A stretch of DNA of 64,000 nt from a virus. Below the pieces are notes generated by a model, which was given only the letters and a program-made list of their open reading frames with translations, was not told where the DNA came from and made no database searches. The stretch is taken from the IMG/VR virus record IMGVR_UViG_3300045988_141753; one strand, given 5' to 3'. How positions within the stretch are numbered: position 1 is the stretch's first letter; every line of letters begins with the position of its first letter. Both the position numbers and the translations under genes were made by a program. This document shows positions 4,755 to 52,788 of the stretch, piece after piece.

Positions 4755-5615
4755 ATGAAAATGAATATTAGTACGGCTCAAACTTGCAAAATTTTCGATT
4801 TATCGGATAGACTTCTGACAGGAATACAGATAACAAAACAGCCAAAGCGAAAAAAAGGTCATAGAAATGCTATTACAAAACATACGGCAAGCAGGCAGAA
4901 GTCTGCAAGCTGGTTCAGACCTGATGATCTAAATGTGATTTTGGAAGATTTGTTTCAGAGTAAAAAATATTTTAAGGCAAATATTATAATTTTTGCTTGC
5001 AACTCAGGCTATCGTTACGGAGATATAATGACCTTGAGGGTCAAGGATTTAACCGATAACAACGGCAAAATTGTAGATTACTTGACATTACAAGAGGACA
5101 AGACGGACAAATGGAGAACGGCATGGCTTTGTGATACTGTGAAGAAAATGCTGAGTTTTATAATCAAGTATTATGGACTTGACCCAGAAGATTATATTTT
5201 TCAGAGTGGAGAACGTAAGAGGAAGTATATTGAGGACATTTTCTTGAATGAGGACGGAGAAGAAGAAATTATATATACTAATGAGAAGTATGATTGGAAC
5301 GGCAGACTACTCAGAATAGCTCCTATGGAACTTAATTCCGTTACAACATTTCTAAAGAATATAACCGCCAAACACGGCATAGAAGGTAAATATAGCACTC
5401 ACAGCTTTAGGCAGACACATTCCGTTTATATTAGTTGTATTCAAAAAGGCAGTGAAGATGTTATTAGAGATTTGCGTATTGCCTGTCAGAGCTTAGGACA
5501 TTCTGATTTGAGGATAACTGAGCAACATTATAGTGGCTGCGATAGCAGACTCGTAAAAGAGCAAATGTTAAAAATGGAAGTGGGCAAGGAAGTTGTGGAT
5601 AAGTATGTAAAATAA
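4755..5615 (+). CDS. tyrosine recombinase / integrase family
   Basis: Catalytic-type residues are present: R in SGYRYGD, HSFRQT (HxxR), LGHSD, and Y in TEQHY. Confidence 0.8.
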   Translation: MKMNISTAQTCKIFDLSDRLLTGIQITKQPKRKKGHRNAITKHTASRQKSASWFRPDDLNVILEDLFQSKKYFKANIIIFACNSGYRYGDIMTLRVKDLTDNNGKIVDYLTLQEDKTDKWRTAWLCDTVKKMLSFIIKYYGLDPEDYIFQSGERKRKYIEDIFLNEDGEEEIIYTNEKYDWNGRLLRIAPMELNSVTTFLKNITAKHGIEGKYSTHSFRQTHSVYISCIQKGSEDVIRDLRIACQSLGHSDLRITEQHYSGCDSRLVKEQMLKMEVGKEVVDKYVK

Positions 5616-5639
5616 AAAGGGACTTTTAAAAGTCCCTTT
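5616..5639. terminator. bidirectional hairpin between convergent genes
   Basis: AAAGGGACTT-TTAA-AAGTCCCTTT perfect palindrome. Confidence 0.6.
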
Positions 5640-5970
5640 AGCGTTTCTTGTGGCGTTCTTTACTCCTCTGTACTGCTAGAGCATTTTTAGATTGATTAAC
5701 CTTGTATTGAGGTCTGTTGCGTGGGAGATAGGCTTTCACAACATTAACGTTCATATTCATTAAGTTGGCAATCTCATTAGCCGACTTCCCTTCTTTGTGG
5801 TATTGAGTGATTTTGGCGTGGGTATTATTAACTATAATACCTAAACTAGAAAGACTTTTCATAACTCTTTGCCACGAGATACCGAGTTTAATAGCAACTC
5901 CTCTTACGGATTTAATTGAGTTCCAGTATGATAATATTTCTTGGTCTGTTATTGATTTAATTTCGGACAT
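5638..5970 (-). CDS. small DNA-binding protein with two HTH-like segments
   Basis: VRGVAIKLGISWQRV and SANEIANLMNMNVNVVKAYL look like Hin/resolvase-type HTH segments. The gene lies directly downstream of the toxin gene. Confidence 0.55.
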   Translation of the reverse strand: MSEIKSITDQEILSYWNSIKSVRGVAIKLGISWQRVMKSLSSLGIIVNNTHAKITQYHKEGKSANEIANLMNMNVNVVKAYLPRNRPQYKVNQSKNALAVQRSKERHKKR

Positions 5971-5987
5971 AAGAATACCTCTTTTGT

Positions 5988-6476
5988 TTAATTGTTAATT
6001 TCGTCTAATAGTTTTCTTTTAACATCGGTAATATGCTGACGGAAGAAATTTGGATTAGCATTTTCATAACTTAAAATTCTTTGGAGCTTATATTTCAGAG
6101 CAGACAGAAGATTATTGTTTTCAATGACATATTGTTGTTTATCATAGCCCTCATAAATTCTGTCTATGTAGACATCTGTTACAGGAAAAGCATCACTAAT
6201 AAAGAAAATAGATTTGGTGGTTGTCTTGCCAATGTGATAAAAGCAAGAAGCAATATTTCTTGGATCTTTGTTTATATAGGAATAAATACGATTAATAGCT
6301 TTAGTGTCACGATGATTTACTTTGCCTACAGGTATTGCCCAATACAATTTGGAATTTTCGGTGGACTTAATCAAACAAACAATGGGTCTTTCCTTGCAAT
6401 CATTCCAAGTTCCTCCTACATCTCGAATAAGTTGATAATAGTCGGGTGTAATAAAGTACATACCATGTTCCGTCAT
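5988..6476 (-). CDS. type III toxin-antitoxin toxin (ToxN/AbiQ/CptN-like endoribonuclease)
   Basis: 162-aa ORF placed immediately after a tandem-repeat RNA locus and a terminator. The N-terminus (YFITPDYYQLI ... RPIVCLI ... LYWAIP) resembles ToxN/AbiQ-type toxins, as recalled from memory. Confidence 0.7.
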   Translation of the reverse strand: MTEHGMYFITPDYYQLIRDVGGTWNDCKERPIVCLIKSTENSKLYWAIPVGKVNHRDTKAINRIYSYINKDPRNIASCFYHIGKTTTKSIFFISDAFPVTDVYIDRIYEGYDKQQYVIENNNLLSALKYKLQRILSYENANPNFFRQHITDVKRKLLDEINN

Positions 6477-6503
6477 ATTTTGACACTCCTAATACAAAAA
6501 AAT

Positions 6504-6538
6504 ATGCTGTCACTTCAGATTAACCAAAATGACAGCAT
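6504..6538 (-). terminator. intrinsic terminator between antitoxin repeats and toxin
   Basis: Stem ATGCTGTC/GACAGCAT followed by a U-run on the minus strand (A-run at 6495-6502 on plus). Confidence 0.75.
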
Positions 6539-6540
6539 CA

Positions 6541-6668
6541 CTACAATGTTTCTGTGTCGCACACTGCGAAGCGTAAATTGAATACTACAATGTTACTTTG
6601 CCGTACATTGTGAAACGTAATTGTATCTACAATGTTTCTGTGTCGCACATTGCGAAGCGTAAATTAGA
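6541..6668 (-). ncRNA. type III antitoxin RNA, three tandem repeats of 42-44 nt
   Basis: Repeats start at 6541, 6585 and 6627 (CTACAATGTT...). The first and third differ at 1 of 39 aligned positions; the middle one has diverged. Confidence 0.75.
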
Positions 6669-6697
6669 GATGATAGAGATAATCTTTCATCATTTAT

Positions 6698-6726
6698 AGT
6701 ATAGCATACTATACTCATTTTGTCAA
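6698..6726 (-). promoter_or_regulatory. sigma-70-type promoter of the type III TA locus
   Basis: Minus strand reads TTGACA, 17-nt spacer, TATACT. Confidence 0.65.
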
Positions 6727-6752
6727 TACTATTTTGTGGAACTTTGTAAAAT

Positions 6753-7112
6753 TTATTCGTTAGTTTGTGACAAGTCACCCTGCTCGCCAACATCTTTTTT
6801 TTCTTTAGGTTTCTTTTCTTTGGTTTTAAATGAAAATGCAAAACCAATTATGCCAATGGAGAAAATTAATGAGCCAGTGGATATGAAAATTACTCTCTCA
6901 ATTTTCGCAGCGGCTATTTTACCGCTGACAAGTGAAGCTCCTATGATATAGTTGTAAGCGTCACCGCCAACATATTCGTCAATGGCACTATACTTGTCAC
7001 CTTCCAAAATTGAAAATGTGGTTAAATTTTTGCTTGGAATTTTTGTTGTATAACCTATCACAAATAGTGTTATTCCTATTGCAATCACAAGAATGGAACA
7101 AATTTTCTTCAT
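6753..7112 (-). CDS. small membrane protein
   Basis: N-terminal and C-terminal hydrophobic helices, with a basic/acidic tail. Confidence 0.55.
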   Translation of the reverse strand: MKKICSILVIAIGITLFVIGYTTKIPSKNLTTFSILEGDKYSAIDEYVGGDAYNYIIGASLVSGKIAAAKIERVIFISTGSLIFSIGIIGFAFSFKTKEKKPKEKKDVGEQGDLSQTNE

Positions 7113-7134
7113 GGTGTTACCTCCTGTTTTATGA

Positions 7135-7800
7135 TTATCTACTACGATAATCGTTTATAAGACTATTGTTGTTTTCAATAGAACTTTGATTATTAGATAT
7201 ACAAGTGTTATAATAATCAATATTACTTTGACTTTCTGATATAAGTTCATTGTATACGTCAACAACTCTTTGGCAATCGTCTAAGTGAGATTGAGCCTTT
7301 GAAACTGCTTCGGAGTCAACTTCTGTAGTCCAACCGCCATCACCATAAACTTTAACCATTTTCTTATTGGCGTTTTCAAGCTGTATTTTAGCCTCTTCAA
7401 CATCATCTTCGGCATCCGATTTGTAGATTTCATAGATGGAAATATCAGATTGCTCATTGTTTATTTCGTTCTGATAGGTGGAGATTTCACTCTGTAGGCG
7501 ATTATTTTCTTGCTCTAAAGCACTTATTTCAGAACTATAATCATGCGTGGTAGTTGTAGTTGTAGTTGTCGTTGTGGTTGTAGTCGTTGTGGTAGTAGTT
7601 GATGATTTGGAAGTGGTTGTGGTAGTTGATGGTTTAGTTGTTGTCAAAGTATGAGAAGTTGTTGTGGGAGTGGTGGTTGTTGTACTTGTTGTAGTGGTAG
7701 TGAAATTACTGTCAGATATGGAACTTGTTGTTTTACTATTACATGAGGACAATGCTAATATTGTCATGAGTGAAATAAGAATTAATTTTATTTTGCTCAT
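7135..7800 (-). CDS. lipoprotein with poly-Thr linker and coiled-coil domain
   Basis: Signal peptide with lipobox LSSC, long T-rich tract, then heptad-like repeats. Confidence 0.65.
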   Translation of the reverse strand: MSKIKLILISLMTILALSSCNSKTTSSISDSNFTTTTTSTTTTTPTTTSHTLTTTKPSTTTTTSKSSTTTTTTTTTTTTTTTTTTHDYSSEISALEQENNRLQSEISTYQNEINNEQSDISIYEIYKSDAEDDVEEAKIQLENANKKMVKVYGDGGWTTEVDSEAVSKAQSHLDDCQRVVDVYNELISESQSNIDYYNTCISNNQSSIENNNSLINDYRSR

Positions 7801-7976
7801 TTTTTATTTCCTCCAATTTCTAAGATTAATTAGAATTACTTTTAATAAAAAATTTTTAGCATATTTTAGGCTGAAAATCAAGATTTAGGGTTTAAGTGTA
7901 ATATCTCAGAAACTAAAATTGTGTATTTCAACAAAAAATACGCTAGAATTTTGTGAAAGATTTTTATTTTTAAGTG

Positions 7977-23435: not shown

Positions 23436-25132
23436 AACAACGAAACATGAATTATAAAATAATAGGCAATAATGATTATTACCATATTCCAATATCTATT
23501 TTTACTAATAGAGGAATAACTAACGTTAGTGAATACACTCATTTAACCGATGATGTATTAATTTCTTATGATAATCTTGACAATATTAATGAAGCGGTTC
23601 AAATGTTAGATAAACACATTAAAAGCAATAGTAAAATAGCGATTATTGTTGATTGCGATGTTGACGGTCAGTGCAGTGCTGCTATGATGTATTCTTATTT
23701 GAAAAGGCTTAACAAAGAAATTGATATTACATATCTGATACATTCTGGAAAGCAACATGGTATTTCTTCTGAGATAGAAATGCCTGAAAGCACAAACTTG
23801 TTGATTATTCCCGATGCAGGAAGTAATGATACTGAACAATGCAAGCAGTTGACAGAACAGGGTGTTGATATACTTGTTCTCGATCACCATGATATTGAAA
23901 GAACAAACCCATATGCGGTTATAGTAAACAATCAGTGTAGTTCAGAATACTCTAATAAAGAATTATGCGGTGCAGGAATTGTATATAAATTTCTACAAGC
24001 ACTCGATGATTGCTACTGGAATGATTATGCCGATGATTACCTTAACCTTGTGGCACTAGCTAATATTTCTGACATTATGGATTTACGTTCTTTTGAAACA
24101 AAAAGGCTGATTGATAAAGGTCTTTATAACGTCACAAATAAATGCTTTGAAGAATTTATTAATGCTCAAAATTATTCCATGAAAGGCAAAATTAATCCTC
24201 ATACTATTGCATTTTGCATTACTTCCCTGATAAACGCAATGTGTAGAGTTGGTGATATGGAAGAAAAGGACTTACTTTTCAGAGCGTTTATTGAACAGGA
24301 CGAAGAATTTGAATATAAAAAACGTGGCGAAACTGAAAATACAAAAGAAAATATTTATCAAAGAGCCGTAAGACTCTGTAAAAACGCTAAATCAAGACAG
24401 GATAATCAAGTGAAAAAGTTACTTCCTGCGTTAAGGAAAAGCGTAACTAATGACAAAAATACAGTTTTATTCTTAAAAGGTAACAATATCCCAAGTGTAT
24501 TTTCTGGATTAATAGCCATGAAAATGGCTAGTTATGCGAAAAAACCTTGCCTAATACTCCGCAAAGACGAAGAAAATAATGTATATAGAGGGTCTGCAAG
24601 AAATTTTGACAACAGTTATGTGCCAGACTTAAAGGCTGAACTACTTAAAACAGGTCTGTTTAATTGGTGTCAGGGTCACGCAAATGCTTTCGGTTTTGAG
24701 ATAAAAGCTGAGAACGTGGCTGAAGCAATTAAAGTTTTAAATAAGAATATTAATTCAGACAATCCTTTGCCAATAGATTTTTGTTTTGATTATGACGAAT
24801 TTAATATTGGAATGATTTCCGATGTTACATCATTGGAGAATTGTTACGGCACAGGAATTAAAGAGCCTTTGTTTGTCATTAATAATATAGTTTTGGAGCA
24901 TAACCAAGGCGTTGTCATGGGTAAAAATGAAGATACATGGAAGTTTATTACTGACGATAACATTGCAATAATTAAGTTCTGTAATCCTAGTGACGATAAA
25001 GTATTAGACTTTTTGAACGGATATGATGATGAAATTTGTATTAACGCTCTATGTCAATTAAATGTTTCTGAATATAAGGGGGTAATTACCCCACAAATAG
25101 TTATTTTGAAATATGAGGAGGTTGAAAGGTAA
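23432..25132 (+). CDS. DHH-family phosphoesterase / RecJ-like ssDNA exonuclease
   Basis: Motifs [21 protein letters not shown], and DHHA1-like GHANAFG. Confidence 0.8.
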
Positions 25133-26286
25133 TGTACAGTTCTTTACATAACCATACAATGTACTCGTTATTGGACGGCTATGGTACACCAAAAGAAATG
25201 CTTGAACAATGCCGAAAAGTCGGTATTAAAGCATATGCAGTTACGGAACATGGCAACCAATATTCATGGATATATTTCGATCAACTATCTAAAGAATATC
25301 CTGATATTAAATTAATATATGGCGTAGAGCTGTATGAATGTTTCGATACGGCTGTAAAAGATAAGAACAATAAGTATTTTCATCTTATCGCTCTCGCAAA
25401 AAATGAGAATGGCAGAAAGGCTTTAAATAAAATTATCACTAAGTCAAATCTTGAAAATTTTTATTTTAAGCCTAGAGTGCAGATTTCAGATATTGCTCCG
25501 TATGCAGAAGATTTAATTATTTGTTCTGCTTGTTTGGCTTCAAAATTAGCTAAAGAAAGTGATTTTAATATTTGTGTTAAATATATCGAAGAATACAAAT
25601 CGTTATTTCCTAATTTCTATTTGGAAATGCAATCTCACAAATCAGAAGAACAAACTAATTACAATAAAAAGATCTTGAAACTATCTGAGGTAACAAACAC
25701 TCCATACATAATTACTACAGATAGCCACGCAGCCACAAAGGAAGATTTATATTATCAGGGTAGGCACGTTCAGATAGCCCACGACACTGAAACAATGTCT
25801 GAAAGCTACGAAGGCTGTTATCTGCAAAGCGAAGAAGAAATTCATACAACTATGGATAAACAAATTGGGGTAAATAATGCTACAAAAGGTTTAAATCAGA
25901 CTAATGCTTTAGCTGATATGATAGAAGAAGTACATATGCCTTTTCAAGACCCACAGTTACCGACATATCCCCTGCCAAGTGGATATAAGTCTAATAATGA
26001 ATTTCTTTTACATCTTATTGACGAGGGGTGGAAAACTAGAAATTTTGACAAGCTTTCTAAAGAAGAACAGAAGATAATGAAAGACCGACTAGACTATGAA
26101 ATGGGAATTATTCATCAAATGAATTTTGACGGTTATTTCATTATTGTATGGGACTTTATAAATTATGCGAAAACTCATGGGGTTAAAATAGGTTCAGGAC
26201 GTGGCTCTGGAGCAGGAAGTCTTGTATGCTATACAATAGGTATAACTGACCTAAACCCTATTAAATATGGATTGATTTTTGAGCGT
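25132..26286 (+). CDS. dnaE: DNA polymerase III alpha-like subunit, exon 1 (PHP domain and start of the polymerase core)
   Basis: N-terminus [12 protein letters not shown] is PHP-like. The exon ends [32 protein letters not shown], the conserved DnaE segment that normally continues as ..PD(I)D(I)D. Confidence 0.8.
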
Positions 26287-27857
26287 AGATAGGTTGCACT
26301 CGTTAAATTCCGTTAATTCGGTATCAGCAAACTAAGACTTCTCATTGAGAGCAAACCGATAATGAGACAAGACCATAGACGAATAAGCTGACTAAGAAAC
26401 CCTAAACCTATAACTAGGTGAGATAAAGGGAATACCGAGCCAAATCTTTTAGTGATAAAAGAAAGTGTGTAACGACTAGGAAATGAGACTTTAGAGCCAA
26501 TAATTTCCCACGAAGACGGAATAAAAACTTTTGTCTTTATCATTAGAAAAGGAATGATGAAGATAGAACAATTAAAAAGAAAAGAGACTTTACAAAACGA
26601 AGAACCCAAATGCCTAAAATGTGGCAGGTGTCTTACATCAAAACAAATTAGTAAAAAAAATAAATTTTGTTGTCATGGCTGTGCTACTTCATATAGACAA
26701 ATGGCACATGATCCAAATATTTTTGAAATAAAAGATAAGGATATTTTATATTATTTACTTGGACTTATTTTCACTGATGGCAATTTAGATGTGCTTGAAA
26801 CAAGAGTTACTTTGTCGCTAACGCAAAAAGAAGTTATAGAATATTTATACCCTTATTTTTGTGATGTGGTGAAACGCAAAATATATGAATATCAGCCAAA
26901 GAATTGTAAAAATGCCCATTGCTCTTATACAATTATAAATACTAATTTGGAAACAATAAATGAATTAAAAAAGATGTCTTTAACACCCAAGAACAGTAGT
27001 AACAAGCAATTTCCGAATATACCCTTGCCATATATTTCGTCATTTTTAAGAGGTGTCTTTGATGGCGATGGGTGTATTTTTAATAATACGAACAAAGCGA
27101 ACAACAAAAAATATCAAAAAATAACAATAACCTGTGCTTCTGAAAAATTTGTTGATGGTTTGGTTAATATTTTAAATTATATTGGGCTGACTCCTACAGT
27201 TGTTCTGGACTCAAGACGCAAAAACAATGAAATAAAAACATACTACGTTTGTATTAACAGACAACGTGACGTCAGATACTTTTTTGATTTTATTTATAAA
27301 GATGCACAAATTTATATAAATTATAAAAAGCAAAAATTCGCATAGATACATATGCGATAAAGACAAAAGTTTGAAAAATATAGTCTAAACTGGGTTGGAA
27401 GTAACCAACAGATGAAAATGAGGGAAACCTCCAGAGCATAGGATAAAGAGCCTATGGTTAATAACAAATTGTTCCTCAATCCTGAGAGAGTTTCAATGCC
27501 AGATTGATTTTCGGTCGAGCATATGGGAAACCATATGTGTTAAGTGTGGTGAACCTATAAAATATAGGGTGTTAATTAAACAATTATTATAATTGTAGCC
27601 GCAGGAAATGGCGGTGTGTTAATTAGCTAACAGGGAATATCTAAGTCGTTCTGTCTGACGATATGACAATCCTGTGCGAAGTTGTATTTTATGATTTAAT
27701 AAAAGGTATAGCACTTTGTCAAATTATAAGTACAAAACGTCAAACGACTAGCTCAATGGAGCGTAGGGTCAAGTGAAATTCTTGACTCGAAGTGCCACAC
27801 GCCTAAACGTATTATTAGAACTGTAATACGCATGGTGAAGATATAGTCTATTCATTG
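26287..27857 (+). mobile_element. group I intron with LAGLIDADG ORF (3' boundary +/- a few nt)
   Basis: The exon end GAGCGT can pair with GCACTC (26296-26301), giving a U-G wobble at the splice site. P7 candidate: GACTA 27746-27750 with TAGTC 27844-27848. G residues at 27857 and 27860 could serve as the intron terminus. Confidence 0.7.
26554..27345 (+). CDS. LAGLIDADG homing endonuclease with N-terminal Zn-ribbon
   Basis: Two dodecapeptide motifs, LLGLIFTDGNL and FLRGVFDGDGCI; CxxC...CxxC at the N-terminus. Confidence 0.8.
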   Translation: MMKIEQLKRKETLQNEEPKCLKCGRCLTSKQISKKNKFCCHGCATSYRQMAHDPNIFEIKDKDILYYLLGLIFTDGNLDVLETRVTLSLTQKEVIEYLYPYFCDVVKRKIYEYQPKNCKNAHCSYTIINTNLETINELKKMSLTPKNSSNKQFPNIPLPYISSFLRGVFDGDGCIFNNTNKANNKKYQKITITCASEKFVDGLVNILNYIGLTPTVVLDSRRKNNEIKTYYVCINRQRDVRYFFDFIYKDAQIYINYKKQKFA

Positions 27858-29930
27858 CAGAAATGTAATGTAGTAAAGTTGGACATCGATGTTTCAGACA
27901 GACCTACAGTAATAAATTACCTGATTGACAAATATGGTGAAAATCGTGTTTGTCAGATTATAAATTTCTCATATATAACACCTGTTGTAGCCATAAAAGA
28001 TGTTGGTAAAATACTAGGTTTTAAATATAATGAAATGGATAAACTGTCCAAAAAGTTTTCGTACAATACATTCCAAGAGTGTATTAACAACAACATAAAC
28101 TACTTATCTGAACACCCTGAGTACAGTGAGTTGCTTGACATAGCAGGCAAGTTGAGTGGTAGAGTTAAAACAGTTAGTTGCCACGCAGGTGGTGTCGGTA
28201 TCGTTGATACTGACATTAGCGACTATATGGCAATGAAACTAGGCTCTGACGGTGAACACGTCATTCAGGTTGATAAAAGGCTTGTCGAACAAATAGGCAT
28301 TATTAAGTTTGATATTCTTGGTGTTCAGACCTTAAAAATGGTACAGGAAATTCAAAATGACTTGCACTTATCTGAATATGATATAAATATCAACAACCCC
28401 AAATTTGAAAATGATAGAAGTCCATTTGAACTGTTAAACAAAGCATTGACGAATGGTGTGTTTCAGGTAGAAAGTGCAGGTATGAAAGACTTGTTGCTCA
28501 GACTACAAGCAACTAATATGGAAGATTTGTCGGCTGTTTTGGCATTGTATAGACCTGATTCAATGGGAGCTTTGGAGGAGTTTATCAAATGTAAGCATGA
28601 TCCTTCACTTGTTACCTATATACACCCCGACATGAAGCCTATTTTGGAAAGCACTTACGGCTGCATGATCTATCAGGAACAACTTTTGGATATTGTAAGA
28701 ACTTTTGGTGGCAGAAGCTATGGTGGAGCTGACTTATTCCGCAAGGCGATAGGCAAAAAGAATATTGAACTTGTTAAGCAAGAGTCAGAAAAGCTGTACC
28801 AAGAAATTATTGACAATGGATATTCTCATGAAATTGCCAAAACGATTAGTGAAGAATTGAAAACTAAAGGTGGTTATCTGTTCAACAAATCACATAGTTA
28901 TAGCTACGCTGTTCTATGCTTTCAAACTGCTTATTTAAAAATAAATTACCCTGTTTATTTTTTCAAAGCACTATTTAATTTGAACAAAGATAAGGCGGGT
29001 ATGGTAAATAAATACATTGTAGACTCTAAACAGTTTGGAGTAACTGTTTTGCCACCTCATATTAATAAATCGCAAGTCGATTTTTCTATTTACGATAATA
29101 ATGTTATGTTTGGTTTTTCTGCGATTACAGGCATTGGTGAACGAATAGCCCAAGAGATTGTTGCTGAGCGTGAGAAGAATGGTAAGTATAAAAACCTTCA
29201 AGATTTGCTGTCAAGAACAACACTGACAAAAACTCAGATTATTAACTTAATGAAGTCAGGTGCAATACCTACGAAAGATAAAAAGAATTGCCTATTGAAA
29301 TATTTGAAGTCATTGTATAAACCATTAGAATATAAAGAATTGTCTAAGTTGCCAACATATAACAAGCTTATTATTGACTATGATATTGATATTGAAAAAT
29401 ATCGTATCGGCAACGGCAAGTATGACTATGACAAAGATCTGTTACTCACTCTTGTAAACCAGAAAAAGAAAGAAAAGTTTGACCTACAGCAAGAAGATAG
29501 GTTGAAACAATTTCTTTTAACCAATAACAAATATCTTGAAAACGCTGATTTTTGGGAGTTTGAAGCATTACAGATATTTATACATAATAACCCATTTGAA
29601 GAAGCACTCCCCTATCTAACAACAACCTTTGAAACCGTTGAGAATGATAATGATTGCGTTGTTGTAGGTGTTATTTCCAGAGTACAAAAGAAAAAGGACA
29701 GAAATAAAAAACCATTTGCTTTTGTGAATATTTACTCCACCTTCGGTATTATAGAGGGAGTTCTTTGGAATAGTCAACTTGTACAGTATGAAGATTTAGT
29801 CAAGAAAGGCTCTCAGGTTGCTATTAAATGCAGAAAAACAGATGAAGATAAAGTTACAATACAGGCTATGCGACCATATGTTGAATGGCTTTCAGAAAGG
29901 AAGAAAAGACATGGCAGAAAAAACATTTAA
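27858..29930 (+). CDS. dnaE: DNA polymerase III alpha-like subunit, exon 2
   Basis: Starts ...VKLDIDVS (the PDIDID-equivalent), then FDILGVQTL, ALYRPD, and an HhH/OB-like C-terminal region. Confidence 0.8.
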   Translation, partial: QKCNVVKLDIDVSDRPTVINYLIDKYGENRVCQIINFSYITPVVAIKDVGKILGFKYNEMDKLSKKFSYNTFQECINNNINYLSEHPEYSELLDIAGKLSGRVKTVSCHAGGVGIVDTDISDYMAMKLGSDGEHVIQVDKRLVEQIGIIKFDILGVQTLKMVQEIQNDLHLSEYDININNPKFENDRSPFELLNKALTNGVFQVESAGMKDLLLRLQATNMEDLSAVLALYRPDSMGALEEFIKCKHDPSLVTYIHPDMKPILESTYGCMIYQEQLLDIVRTFGGRSYGGADLFRKAIGKKNIELVKQESEKLYQEIIDNGYSHEIAKTISEELKTKGGYLFNKSHSYSYAVLCFQTAYLKINYPVYFFKALFNLNKDKAGMVNKYIVDSKQFGVTVLPPHINKSQVDFSIYDNNVMFGFSAITGIGERIAQEIVAEREKNGKYKNLQDLLSRTTLTKTQIINLMKSGAIPTKDKKNCLLKYLKSLYKPLEYKELSKLPTYNKLIIDYDIDIEKYRIGNGKYDYDKDLLLTLVNQKKKEKFDLQQEDRLKQFLLTNNKYLENADFWEFEALQIFIHNNPFEEALPYLTTTFETVENDNDCVVVGVISRVQKKKDRNKKPFAFVNIYSTFGIIEGVLWNSQLVQYEDLVKKGSQVAIKCRKTDEDKVTIQAMRPYVEWLSERKKRHGRKNI

Positions 29931-51162: not shown

Positions 51163-52788
51163 ATGAGAATAGCAATATATTCAAGAAAATCAAAATTTAC
51201 AGGCAAAGGTGAAAGTATTGGAAATCAAGTTGAAATGTGTCGAGATTATATCGCTACAAATTATAATGGCGAAGAACATTCCATACAAGTATTTGAAGAT
51301 GAAGGCTTTAGCGGTAAAAATCTTGACCGACCACAATTTAAAAAAATGATAGAAATAGAAAATGTCATACCATTTGATTTAATAGTTGTGTATAGATTAG
51401 ACAGAATTAGCCGTAATGTAGGCGACTTTGCTTCTTTAATTGAAAAGCTAAATAAAAAGAATACGTCATTTGTATGCGTAAAAGAACATTTTGATACAGG
51501 TAACTCTATGGGACGTGCAATGATGAACATAGCTGCGGTTTTTGCACAGTTAGAAAGAGAAACTATAGCAGAGCGTATTAAAGATAATATGTATCTTTTG
51601 GCAAAAGAAGGTCATTGGCTCGGAGGAACGACACCATTAGGCTATAAATCCATTGAAGTTACAAATGGTAAAAGGACACATTTTGAACTTATCATTGATG
51701 AAAGTCAAATAGATTTGGTAAATATAATTTTCAGTAAATATAAACAGCTTGGTAGCATTAACGGAGTAGAAACATATTTGTTTGTGAATGGTTATAAAAC
51801 TCAAAAAAATAACTATTGGCATAAATCTAATGTAAAACGCATTTTAACCAATCCAATCTACTGCATTGCGGATATTGATAGCCTAAATTATTTCACTGAG
51901 TTAGGCTGTAATGTTTGTTTCACACTTGACGATTGCAATGGCAAGAAAGGCATTTATCCGTATAATAGGTTTTCAGGACAAAAAAGAGAAATGCAATCAT
52001 ATGATCGATGGATTATTACTATATCAGAACACCAAGGAATTTTGGCAGGCAAAGAATGGGTGGCTATTCAGCAACAATTAAAGGCAAATTCAAAAGATGG
52101 TTTCGGTGGGAAAGCAAACGAAAGACGTTCCACTAGCAATACTTCACTTTTATCGGGTGTACTGTTCTGTTCATGCGGAGCTTATATGCGACCAAAAAAA
52201 TATCCATCAGGAAATACCTTTTATATTTGTGAAAACAAAATGGATAAAAAAATAACTGAGTGCAATAATTCTAACATCAATGCAGACGAATTAGATAAAA
52301 TAGTTTTAAACGAGTTATTTTCTTTCGATATAAAAGACGGAGTTGTTGATTCACAAATTCAAAATTTAAAAGAACAAATTATAAATATTGACAATGATTT
52401 GCAGAAACAAATTGGACGTTTAAAAAAGCAAATAGAAGCCAATAAGAACACGGTGAATAAATTTATGAATATCGTGGCTCTATCTATTGAAAATGATACG
52501 CCAGAACAAGTGGTTGAAGTTTACAATCAGAAAATAAATGAGTTATTAAATCAAAATAAAATAACTCAAAAAAGAATTGACGAGTTGCAAGATACCAATA
52601 TTGTTCAAGCAAAGATGAATGATAGGTTAAACAGCTTAACAGATGCTATGGCATATCTTAAAGAAAATTTTGACAAATTAACTATTGTAGAAAAAAGAGG
52701 GTTTGTTAAAAAGATAGTTGATAGGATAGTTTGGGACGGCAATAATATCAATATTTTTATTAAAGGTATTTCAGAATTATCAGAATAA
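51163..52788 (+). CDS. int: large serine recombinase (integrase)
   Basis: N-terminus IYSRKS...VVYRLDRISRN is a resolvase catalytic domain. It is followed by a recombinase domain, a Cys-rich zinc ribbon and a long coiled-coil. Confidence 0.85.
   Translation: MRIAIYSRKSKFTGKGESIGNQVEMCRDYIATNYNGEEHSIQVFEDEGFSGKNLDRPQFKKMIEIENVIPFDLIVVYRLDRISRNVGDFASLIEKLNKKNTSFVCVKEHFDTGNSMGRAMMNIAAVFAQLERETIAERIKDNMYLLAKEGHWLGGTTPLGYKSIEVTNGKRTHFELIIDESQIDLVNIIFSKYKQLGSINGVETYLFVNGYKTQKNNYWHKSNVKRILTNPIYCIADIDSLNYFTELGCNVCFTLDDCNGKKGIYPYNRFSGQKREMQSYDRWIITISEHQGILAGKEWVAIQQQLKANSKDGFGGKANERRSTSNTSLLSGVLFCSCGAYMRPKKYPSGNTFYICENKMDKKITECNNSNINADELDKIVLNELFSFDIKDGVVDSQIQNLKEQIINIDNDLQKQIGRLKKQIEANKNTVNKFMNIVALSIENDTPEQVVEVYNQKINELLNQNKITQKRIDELQDTNIVQAKMNDRLNSLTDAMAYLKENFDKLTIVEKRGFVKKIVDRIVWDGNNINIFIKGISELSE

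Follow-up and report, generated by a model that had tools for sequence, protein, structure and literature searches.

A probable type III toxin–antitoxin module with pseudoknot RNA repeats and a CptN-like toxin, carried as an exchangeable cassette by a temperate gut phage

We analyzed a locus on the minus strand of a 64 000-nt stretch of viral DNA, IMG/VR record IMGVR_UViG_3300045988_141753 (further called the window; all coordinates refer to it). Very probably, the locus is a complete type III toxin–antitoxin module, carried by a phage as a moron cassette and acting by the mechanism proposed below: an array of three RNA repeats, the antitoxin, is followed by an attenuating terminator and by a gene for a 162-aa homologue of the endoribonuclease CptN. 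The anatomy of the module, its homology, the fold of its RNA (seen through covariation), its phage context and the exchange of cassettes between sister phages are all directly supported by the observations described here.

RNA repeats and toxin of the module

The sequence-level features by which Blower et al. 2012 (PMC3401426) characterized type III loci, i.e. repeats, a palindromic terminator, a promoter with −35 and −10 boxes and toxin homology or fold, were all found at this locus (Table 1); type III loci are also defined by toxicity of the protein, neutralisation by its RNA and cutting of the repeats into units by the toxin, which are predicted here. The first-pass annotation, made from the letters alone, had read the same type III layout, with a promoter TTGACA-17-TATACT, three tandem repeats of 42–44 nt, a terminator hairpin with a U-run, and a ribosome-binding site ahead of an open reading frame (ORF) of 162 codons; each of these elements was recovered. 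The promoter is the top promoter-like site within positions 5400–7900, and a short leader separates it from the array. Of 83 distinct related loci, 57 likewise have a hairpin with a T-run after the last unit, at the matching position.

Tandem Repeats Finder (TRF) reported one array in the locus (6540–6665; period 42, 2.9 copies, score 182). Its units 1 and 3 differ by the single substitution A6564G, with a G-U pair retained, while unit 2 has diverged. In each unit two crossing helices, S1 and S2, can be drawn; S1 of unit 2 is CGU/ACG in place of the CGC/GCG of units 1 and 3, a compensatory change. The Rfam covariance model RF02920 matched the array over its full length (1–113 of 113) with 85.1 bits against a gathering threshold of 52.1 (E = 3e-12), and the three hairpins of the model coincide with the S2 stems of the three units. 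Because of this match, and because homologous arrays precede a homologous ORF in ∼100 other loci, the array is not a chance repeat.

RF02920 accompanies the toxin elsewhere too: in 11 of 11 diverse loci tested the RNA lies directly upstream of a toxin homologue (127 bits in Fusobacterium vincentii), and the model had no match in canonical cptIN loci, in toxIN loci or in two more distant relatives. Rfam lists the family as Cis-reg, with three simple hairpins and no pseudoknot; the searchable literature yielded no mention of it and no stated function.

To describe the RNA, 136 loci with relatives of the toxin were gathered. TRF, run on 104 of them, gave arrays of 39–46 nt and 2–3.4 copies, situated 40–70 nt before the ATG in 70 of the 104; a motif search in 116 distinct upstream regions found at least one unit in 110 and exactly three units in 77. 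The alignment for covariation analysis held 150 distinct units and showed two crossing helices, S1 of 3–4 bp (CGC/GCG) and S2 of 7 bp (ACAAUGU/ACAUUGU); L1 is 3 nt long, the junction has no nucleotides, and the A-rich loop measures 7–8 nt, with the consensus NCAAAGAA. Cells of the pseudoknot were paired in 92.5% of cases versus 81.9% after shuffling, double-change cells numbered 200 versus 55, and the covariation score of 0.36 (0.16 in shuffled alignments) was reached by none of 500 shuffles; the part of these statistics that comes from S2 is inflated, as only units with 6 or more of the 7 S2 pairs were picked. The S1 statistics and the Rfam matches are free of this bias, and Rfam gives independent support for S2. 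Pairing reaches at least 99% at the three core pairs of S1, where 20, 33 and 67 compensatory changes were counted; such changes were seen at 8 of the 11 pairs of the two helices, and registers slid along the alignment were all paired at 54% or less. Crossing helices that covary over 150 units thus mark each unit as a predicted H-type pseudoknot, in line with the suggestion made with the first-pass annotation that a repeat be folded as a pseudoknot.

In many arrays the three units differ from each other by compensatory changes specific to their position. Such divergence shows that selection for the fold acts on every unit by itself, which is of relevance for the assembly of type III complexes. 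Five nucleotides ahead of S1, the linkers have an invariant CAA, a candidate cleavage site. One variant of the phage (locus L008, the same as L159) has a 100% identical toxin but only one unit left of the three; the two outer units, being nearly identical, have presumably recombined. A single-unit array next to an intact toxin fits what is known of CptI, a single repeat of which suffices to neutralise CptN (PMC4627078).

As to the toxin, searches against Pfam (E ≤ 1) and PADLOC gave no match. A sequence search of PDB returned CptN of E. rectale (4RMO) as the only match, with E = 1e-4 for the single sequence; a profile of 30 family members matched 4RMO with E = 3.9e-9. The NCBIfam model of CptIN, NF047359, aligned from end to end (2–150 of 150; E = 1.2e-15, 57.7 bits). 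The equivalog cut-off of this model is 90 bits, and all 30 sampled members of the clade of this toxin fell below it (best E 3.4e-19), whereas canonical CptN proteins taken as positive controls scored 168 and 188 bits, the 168 bits being those of CptN in a sister phage. Aligned by hhalign, the toxin clade and canonical CptN matched with 97.8% probability (E = 1e-12, 124 columns), so the profile comparison with type III toxin families that the first-pass annotation had called for came out in favor of CptN. No relation to the other two families was detected: for ToxN, there was no match to Pfam PF13958, and BLASTP against the ToxN of a sister phage (locus L137) gave only E = 1.6; for TenpN, the model NF047358 was not matched, CptIN being the only family reported by the NCBIfam scan.

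The AlphaFold2 model of the toxin, built from an alignment of 88 homologues, had a pLDDT (predicted local distance difference test) value of 95. Foldseek placed 4RMO as its top PDB fold (E = 1.9e-9, template modelling (TM) scores 0.75/0.78, 161 columns, 20% identity), followed by the MazF/Kid/CcdB toxins and AbiQ.

One loop sets the clade apart. After the conserved YW-IP strand, CptN has a P-L-S-S loop, replaced by P-V-G-K/N in the toxin clade in all three alignments; the ToxN of L137 has P-I-S-S here. With G51-K52 in place of the Ser-Ser dyad, catalysis may differ from that of CptN. Clade-wide, H55, R56, H81, R146 and Q147 are invariant, and H148 and T150 nearly so; R56 or R63 may take the place of the loop Arg of CptN. 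Residues S89 and Y108 align with Ser85 and Tyr104 of CptN, which touch the scissile adenine (PMC4627078; membership of the CptN triad is our reading of that text), and both are conserved. Taken together, homology to CptN, a score below the cut-off and the altered loop lead us to classify the 162-aa protein, from sequence and model, as a CptN homologue of a sister clade and not as a CptN equivalog.

The clade is large: it comprises at least 665 clusters at 90% identity and at least 329 at 50%. The 665 clusters bear no functional names (the few named are ‘hypothetical’ or ‘uncharacterised’) and no Pfam domain, and the scores of the 50%-identity clusters grade down to canonical CptN. In the phage population the toxin ORF is full length and 97–100% conserved, with ∼30 invariant family residues. 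A metagenomic locus (L215) has an apparent deletion that fuses residues 1–148 of the toxin to residues 47–110 of the downstream helix-turn-helix (HTH) protein; it may be a decayed copy or an assembly error. Antisense to the toxin gene runs a TTG-initiated ORF of 166 codons (6081–6581, plus strand), most likely spurious.

Table 1. Features of the locus (window coordinates)
Feature	Position	Strand	Description
Promoter	6698–6726	−	Sigma-70-type, TTGACA-17 nt-TATACT with TG extension; 11 of 12 consensus matches
Palindrome TATAGTAT-N3-ATACTATA	6695–6713		Perfect; overlaps the −10 box
Antitoxin RNA array, three units	6543–6664	−	Rfam RF02920 ‘Fusobacteriales-1’; cores 6660–6629, 6618–6587, 6574–6543
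Unit 1, predicted pseudoknot	6629–6660	−	S1 CGC 6659–6657 with GCG 6646–6644; L1 UUC
Unit 1, S2	6653–6647 with 6635–6629	−	GCAAUGU with ACAUUGU; A-rich loop 6643–6636
Unit 2, predicted pseudoknot	6587–6618	−	S1 CGU 6617–6615 with ACG 6604–6602; S2 ACAAUGU 6611–6605 with ACAUUGU 6593–6587
Unit 3, predicted pseudoknot	6543–6574	−	S1 6573–6571 with 6560–6558; S2 GCAGUGU 6567–6561 with ACAUUGU 6549–6543
Intrinsic terminator (attenuator)	6496–6538	−	15-pair stem 6538–6504, then U7 run
Toxin gene, 162 aa	5988–6476	−	CptN-like endoribonuclease homologue; ribosome-binding site AGGAG 6490–6486
[quoted passage not shown]
Tandem-HTH gene, 110 aa	5638–5970	−	Co-transcribed with toxin; slot backbone gene
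Bidirectional terminator	5616–5639		Ends the operon and the convergent tyrosine-recombinase-like gene (4755–5615, +)

Cassette exchange and phage context

Retrieval through homologues of the HTH gene gave 74 loci (not de-duplicated between collections), in 73 of which a type III toxin lies immediately upstream of the HTH gene; the same promoter and HTH gene flank each cassette. Three kinds of cassette occupy this slot: that of the window; a canonical CptIN, with a toxin of 165 aa (168 bits) and an array of 45 nt × 2.1 whose homology to E. rectale cptI is clear; and a ToxIN, with an array of 36 nt × 2.2 and a Pfam ToxN of 164 aa (119 bits). Homology of the left flank covers promoter and leader up to ...ATGATGAAAG (region 6768–6680 is 93% identical to related phages with other cassettes) and resumes on the right at AAAAGAGGT, the ribosome-binding site of the HTH gene; in the window, the exchanged segment thus spans 6679–5997.

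In one locus (L194, 960–2500) a canonical CptIN and then an RF02920/CptN-like cassette stand in tandem, each with its own −10 box, palindrome and leader copy. Locus L201 has no cassette, and HicA- and PemK-type toxin genes are nearby. Genes of the HicA and PemK/MazF types were observed near the slot in sister phages (L201, 400–2500; L137, 1–394); with these genes around the slot, the region from the anti-repressor to the HTH gene behaves as a toxin–antitoxin or defence island.

The phage itself is temperate. Besides an anti-repressor, the window encodes a DnaB-like helicase, RecJ, a split DNA polymerase, NrdD, an endolysin, virion proteins and a large serine integrase (541 aa, 51163–52788). 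About 30 IMG/VR contigs of 45–116 kb share the locus. A 448-kb contig of Hominimerdicola aceti (Oscillospiraceae) has it as well, as do metagenomic scaffolds of 146–402 kb; its presence inside contigs of such length indicates integration as a prophage. The carrier is a temperate phage of ∼100 kb of Hominimerdicola, and the module an accessory cassette in it. More diverged members of the toxin clade were seen on ∼26 further viral contigs, and the clade is widespread in chromosomes of gut Firmicutes. A DNA search with the locus against GenBank phages gave no match; among deposited genomes, the protein search found one Clostridioides phage and five Clostridium plasmids, with the gene unannotated or ‘hypothetical’.

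Some other genes of the window deserve mention. A gene of the tyrosine recombinase family (286 aa) converges on the HTH gene and adjoins it in the related loci examined; it may serve in Xer-like resolution, inversion or cassette capture. We considered integron-like capture of cassettes by this recombinase and rejected it: the evidence is adjacency only, a typical core site would need a longer spacer than the 3 nt of the palindrome, and the shared flanks suffice for homologous exchange. Just upstream of the module (6753–7800, minus strand) are two small genes. One codes for a 221-aa protein that has long stretches of Thr and a signal of the lipoprotein type (…LALSSC), the other for a 119-aa membrane protein, and neither matches any family. 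Both genes are present in some sister phages (L161, L185 and L194), and L137 has an 83-aa gene instead; this region is a second variable moron segment, possibly for superinfection exclusion. The DNA polymerase gene (25132–29930, plus strand) is split into two ORFs that correspond to positions 44–433 and 447–1066 of PHROG 405; the ∼1.5 kb between them, probably an intron or a mobile insertion, encode a LAGLIDADG homing endonuclease (26554–27345).

Proposed mechanism and competing explanations

In the mechanism that we propose, the strong promoter would produce a transcript of three pseudoknot-forming RNA units. Most transcripts would end at the intrinsic terminator, leaving antitoxin RNA in excess of toxin mRNA, while read-through would give the 162-aa CptN-like endoribonuclease and the HTH protein. 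By analogy with CptIN and ToxIN, the toxin is expected to cut the precursor in the single-stranded linkers bearing CAA, and to be kept inactive by the processed pseudoknots in a closed RNA–protein complex. If the supply of antitoxin dropped, upon a shut-off of transcription by a superinfecting phage or upon loss of the prophage, free toxin would cleave RNA and arrest the cell. Nuclease activity, RNA processing, complex formation, trigger and biological role are what we infer here from the established behavior of ToxIN and CptIN.

Several observations weigh against this interpretation. The toxin scores at 57.7 bits below the 90-bit equivalog cut-off of NF047359, Pfam and PADLOC do not match it, and the Ser-Ser dyad of canonical CptN and of the L137 ToxN has become G51-K52. 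One near-identical variant of the toxin has an internal stop codon; this variant may be a decayed copy or an assembly error. In the window, no CAA linker follows unit 3, and UAA, not CAA, stands before unit 1; two mature ends would then be expected for unit 2 only. Finally, neither of the two cptIN loci tried in E. coli conferred resistance to phages (PMC3401426).

The last point bears on the role of the module. That cassettes turn over and stack up in an island rich in toxins points to inter-phage defence. One could argue that the module is mainly an addiction or stabilisation device that kills cells once the prophage is lost or silenced, and not an abortive-infection system against other phages; we find this unlikely, if worth serious attention. 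CptIN of E. rectale stabilised a plasmid, whereas no coliphage tried against it was aborted (PMC4627078, PMC3401426), relatives of the toxin reside on Clostridium plasmids or phage-plasmids, and the phage is integrated as a prophage. However, segregation does not easily rid a cell of an integrated prophage, and the three cassettes of unrelated specificity that replace each other, the stacking of two of them in one locus and the HicA- and PemK-type toxins nearby resemble the diversifying pattern of defence islands. The first-pass annotation had called the locus of ‘abortive-infection type’, and had named both exclusion of competing phages and stabilisation of a lysogen as possible roles; the label is not established, the only CptIN loci tested having shown plasmid stabilisation and no phage resistance (PMC3401426, PMC4627078).

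What part the HTH gene plays is a separate question. The first-pass annotation had read it as an extra gene with two HTH motifs that follows the toxin in the same transcription unit. The shared unit stands: the gap between the ORFs is 17 nt, with a ribosome-binding site inside, and no terminator was found between them. The ‘extra’ component does not. No HTH homologue was found near ∼105 diverged loci of the toxin clade, and at least 24 contigs have a split or truncated HTH gene beside an intact toxin. We therefore rejected the HTH gene as a conserved toxin–antitoxin partner; it belongs to the backbone of the phage slot. The 110-aa protein had only sub-threshold HTH-type matches (Cbp1, TnsD, LuxR/sigma region 4); its AlphaFold2 model (pLDDT 73) shows two three-helix bundles and had no significant match among PDB folds, and its family is tiny, with 12 homologue clusters. 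It is probably a DNA-binding regulator; neutralisation of the toxin needs no HTH protein.

The palindrome overlapping the −10 box (TATAGTAT-N3-ATACTATA) is a plausible candidate operator, possibly, as we conjecture, for the HTH protein. Its pattern occurs once in the 64-kb window against 0.07 matches expected by chance, a third half-site lies upstream at 6726–6732, and the palindrome is kept in L137, L161 and L194. Accordingly, one could view the HTH protein as a functional third component, a repressor at the palindrome, and the slot as a regulated three-part system. A type III toxin of whichever family directly upstream of the HTH gene in nearly all loci, toxin–HTH spacers of ∼17–22 nt in the three loci read, the palindrome that accompanies each cassette (including the tandem pair of L194) and the two HTH bundles of the model would agree with this; the lack of HTH homologues at the diverged loci, the broken HTH genes beside intact toxins, the small size of the family and the lack of a significant fold match speak against it, and we regard it as improbable. 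Somewhat more doubtful still is an extended scenario: the promoter with its palindromic operator and the HTH gene would be a dedicated ‘socket’, into which type III cassettes are plugged, exchanged and stacked with the HTH protein as their common regulator, and the clade that goes with RF02920 would count as a fourth type III family, distinct in its mechanism, in which a His/Arg active site replaces Ser-Ser and three non-identical units enter a hetero-oligomeric complex.

It is very unlikely that the array is a cis-regulatory leader only, e.g. three protein- or ligand-binding hairpins that control termination ahead of an unrelated gene, and not an antitoxin. The Rfam class and its three simple hairpins would suggest such a leader, as would the constant position of the array 5′ of a gene and ahead of a terminator; in known type III systems, however, attenuation in cis and neutralisation in trans coexist (PMC3401426), and the predicted fold is the H-type pseudoknot of ToxI and CptI (PMC4627078). 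Furthermore, the downstream gene is always a CptN homologue, and in sister phages array and ORF are swapped jointly for bona fide cptIN or toxIN modules, which argues for functional equivalence to these.

Phages reportedly carry mimics of ToxI (Blower and colleagues are said to have described in PLoS Genetics in 2012 a pseudo-ToxI of phage PhiTE that mimics the antitoxin). By the same logic the array could be a counter-defence decoy against a host CptN-like Abi system, of which the chromosomes of gut Firmicutes would hold many, with the ORF incidental; a full-length ORF conserved at 97–100% with its ∼30 invariant family residues, and exchange of the whole module rather than of the RNA alone, leave this scarcely credible.

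With the type III module as the preferred explanation, a function can be proposed for RF02920, a family listed only as Cis-reg: it would serve as antitoxin to an extensive clade of CptN-like toxins, a clade which Pfam and PADLOC miss, which stays below the NCBIfam cut-off and which RefSeq plasmid records call ‘hypothetical’. CptIN-type systems would thereby be extended to phages. The phage population also offers a natural isogenic series, with a CptN-like cassette, canonical CptIN, ToxIN, both or no cassette at constant promoter and neighbors; it makes the role of CptIN-type systems in their native gut hosts, be it defence or stabilisation, directly testable.

Comparison with known systems

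The nearest known system is CptIN of E. rectale (4RMO; PMC3401426, PMC4627078). Both have a promoter, tandem repeats, a terminator and a toxin of ∼160 aa (our canonical locus for comparison was L142), both come from gut Firmicutes, and the toxins are homologous by sequence, profile and fold, at 20–26% identity. CptI (PMC4627078) and the RNA of the window are alike as H-type pseudoknots in which L1 is short and the A-rich loop long. A further trait of the CptIN family is a 2:2 heterotetramer of RNA and protein. However, cptI consists of two identical 45-nt units and the arrays of the window clade of three units of 42–44 nt, often non-identical; the stem lengths are reversed relative to CptI, with S1 of 3–4 bp and S2 of 7 bp in the window; and the units of the window, members of an Rfam family of their own, cannot be aligned to the 45-nt cptI of L142 or L161. 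From the repeat length, the first-pass annotation had guessed at a cptI-like system; the guess holds for the toxin, with CptN as its closest relative by sequence, profile and fold, but not for the RNA, and the toxin is non-canonical.

Location also differs, since none of the 33 cptIN loci in the survey by Blower et al. was on a phage (PMC3401426). That survey listed cptIN in Fusobacterium, including the strain of our locus L093, and in Phascolarctobacterium; with this strain among them, the toxin clade was probably already counted under cptIN. The Fusobacterium ‘cptIN’ loci likely belong to the window clade. The first-pass annotation was right to place the locus on a phage and called this unusual. 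Such carriage is indeed uncommon in the literature but has precedents among type III and type III-like systems: a Clostridium phage carries toxIN, viruses carry tenpIN, and a C. difficile prophage has AbiF (PMC3401426, PMC12283969, bioRxiv 10.1101/2025.04.15.648962).

ToxIN of Pectobacterium (pECA1039; PF13958) and AbiQ have the layout seen in the window and, presumably, a similar mechanism, and ToxIN occupies the identical slot in sister phages; unlike CptN, ToxN has no detectable sequence similarity to the toxin of the window, and AbiQ is a fold match with a TM score of only 0.60. The tenpIN systems in viruses (PMC12283969) have an RNA-neutralised toxin, as proposed here, from the TenpN family, which differs from the CptN-like toxin. 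AbiF/RCd22 of a C. difficile prophage (bioRxiv 10.1101/2025.04.15.648962) likewise combines a prophage-borne toxin with an RNA antitoxin, whereas the AbiF fold is Abi_2/HEPN-like, unlike that of our toxin. The ‘abiF motifs’ were conserved RNA motifs named before their function was known (same source). RF02920, from the motif survey of Weinberg et al. 2017 (PMC5737381), is the same RNA as that of the window over the full model; Rfam shows no S1, whereas S1 of the window is backed by covariation.

The slot has a parallel as well. The P2/P4-type temperate phages and satellites reportedly possess defence hotspots (Rousset and colleagues are said to have described them in 2022). As in those hotspots, a fixed slot between conserved genes holds alternative cargo in near-identical phages; unlike in them, 73 of the 74 slots here hold type III modules, and the arms are the shared promoter-leader on the left and the ribosome-binding site of the HTH gene on the right. 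Type III toxin–antitoxin systems and the CptIN family were thus known before; new are the link of RF02920 to the toxin clade, the covariation of the pseudoknot, the altered catalytic loop and the three-way exchange of cassettes under one promoter.

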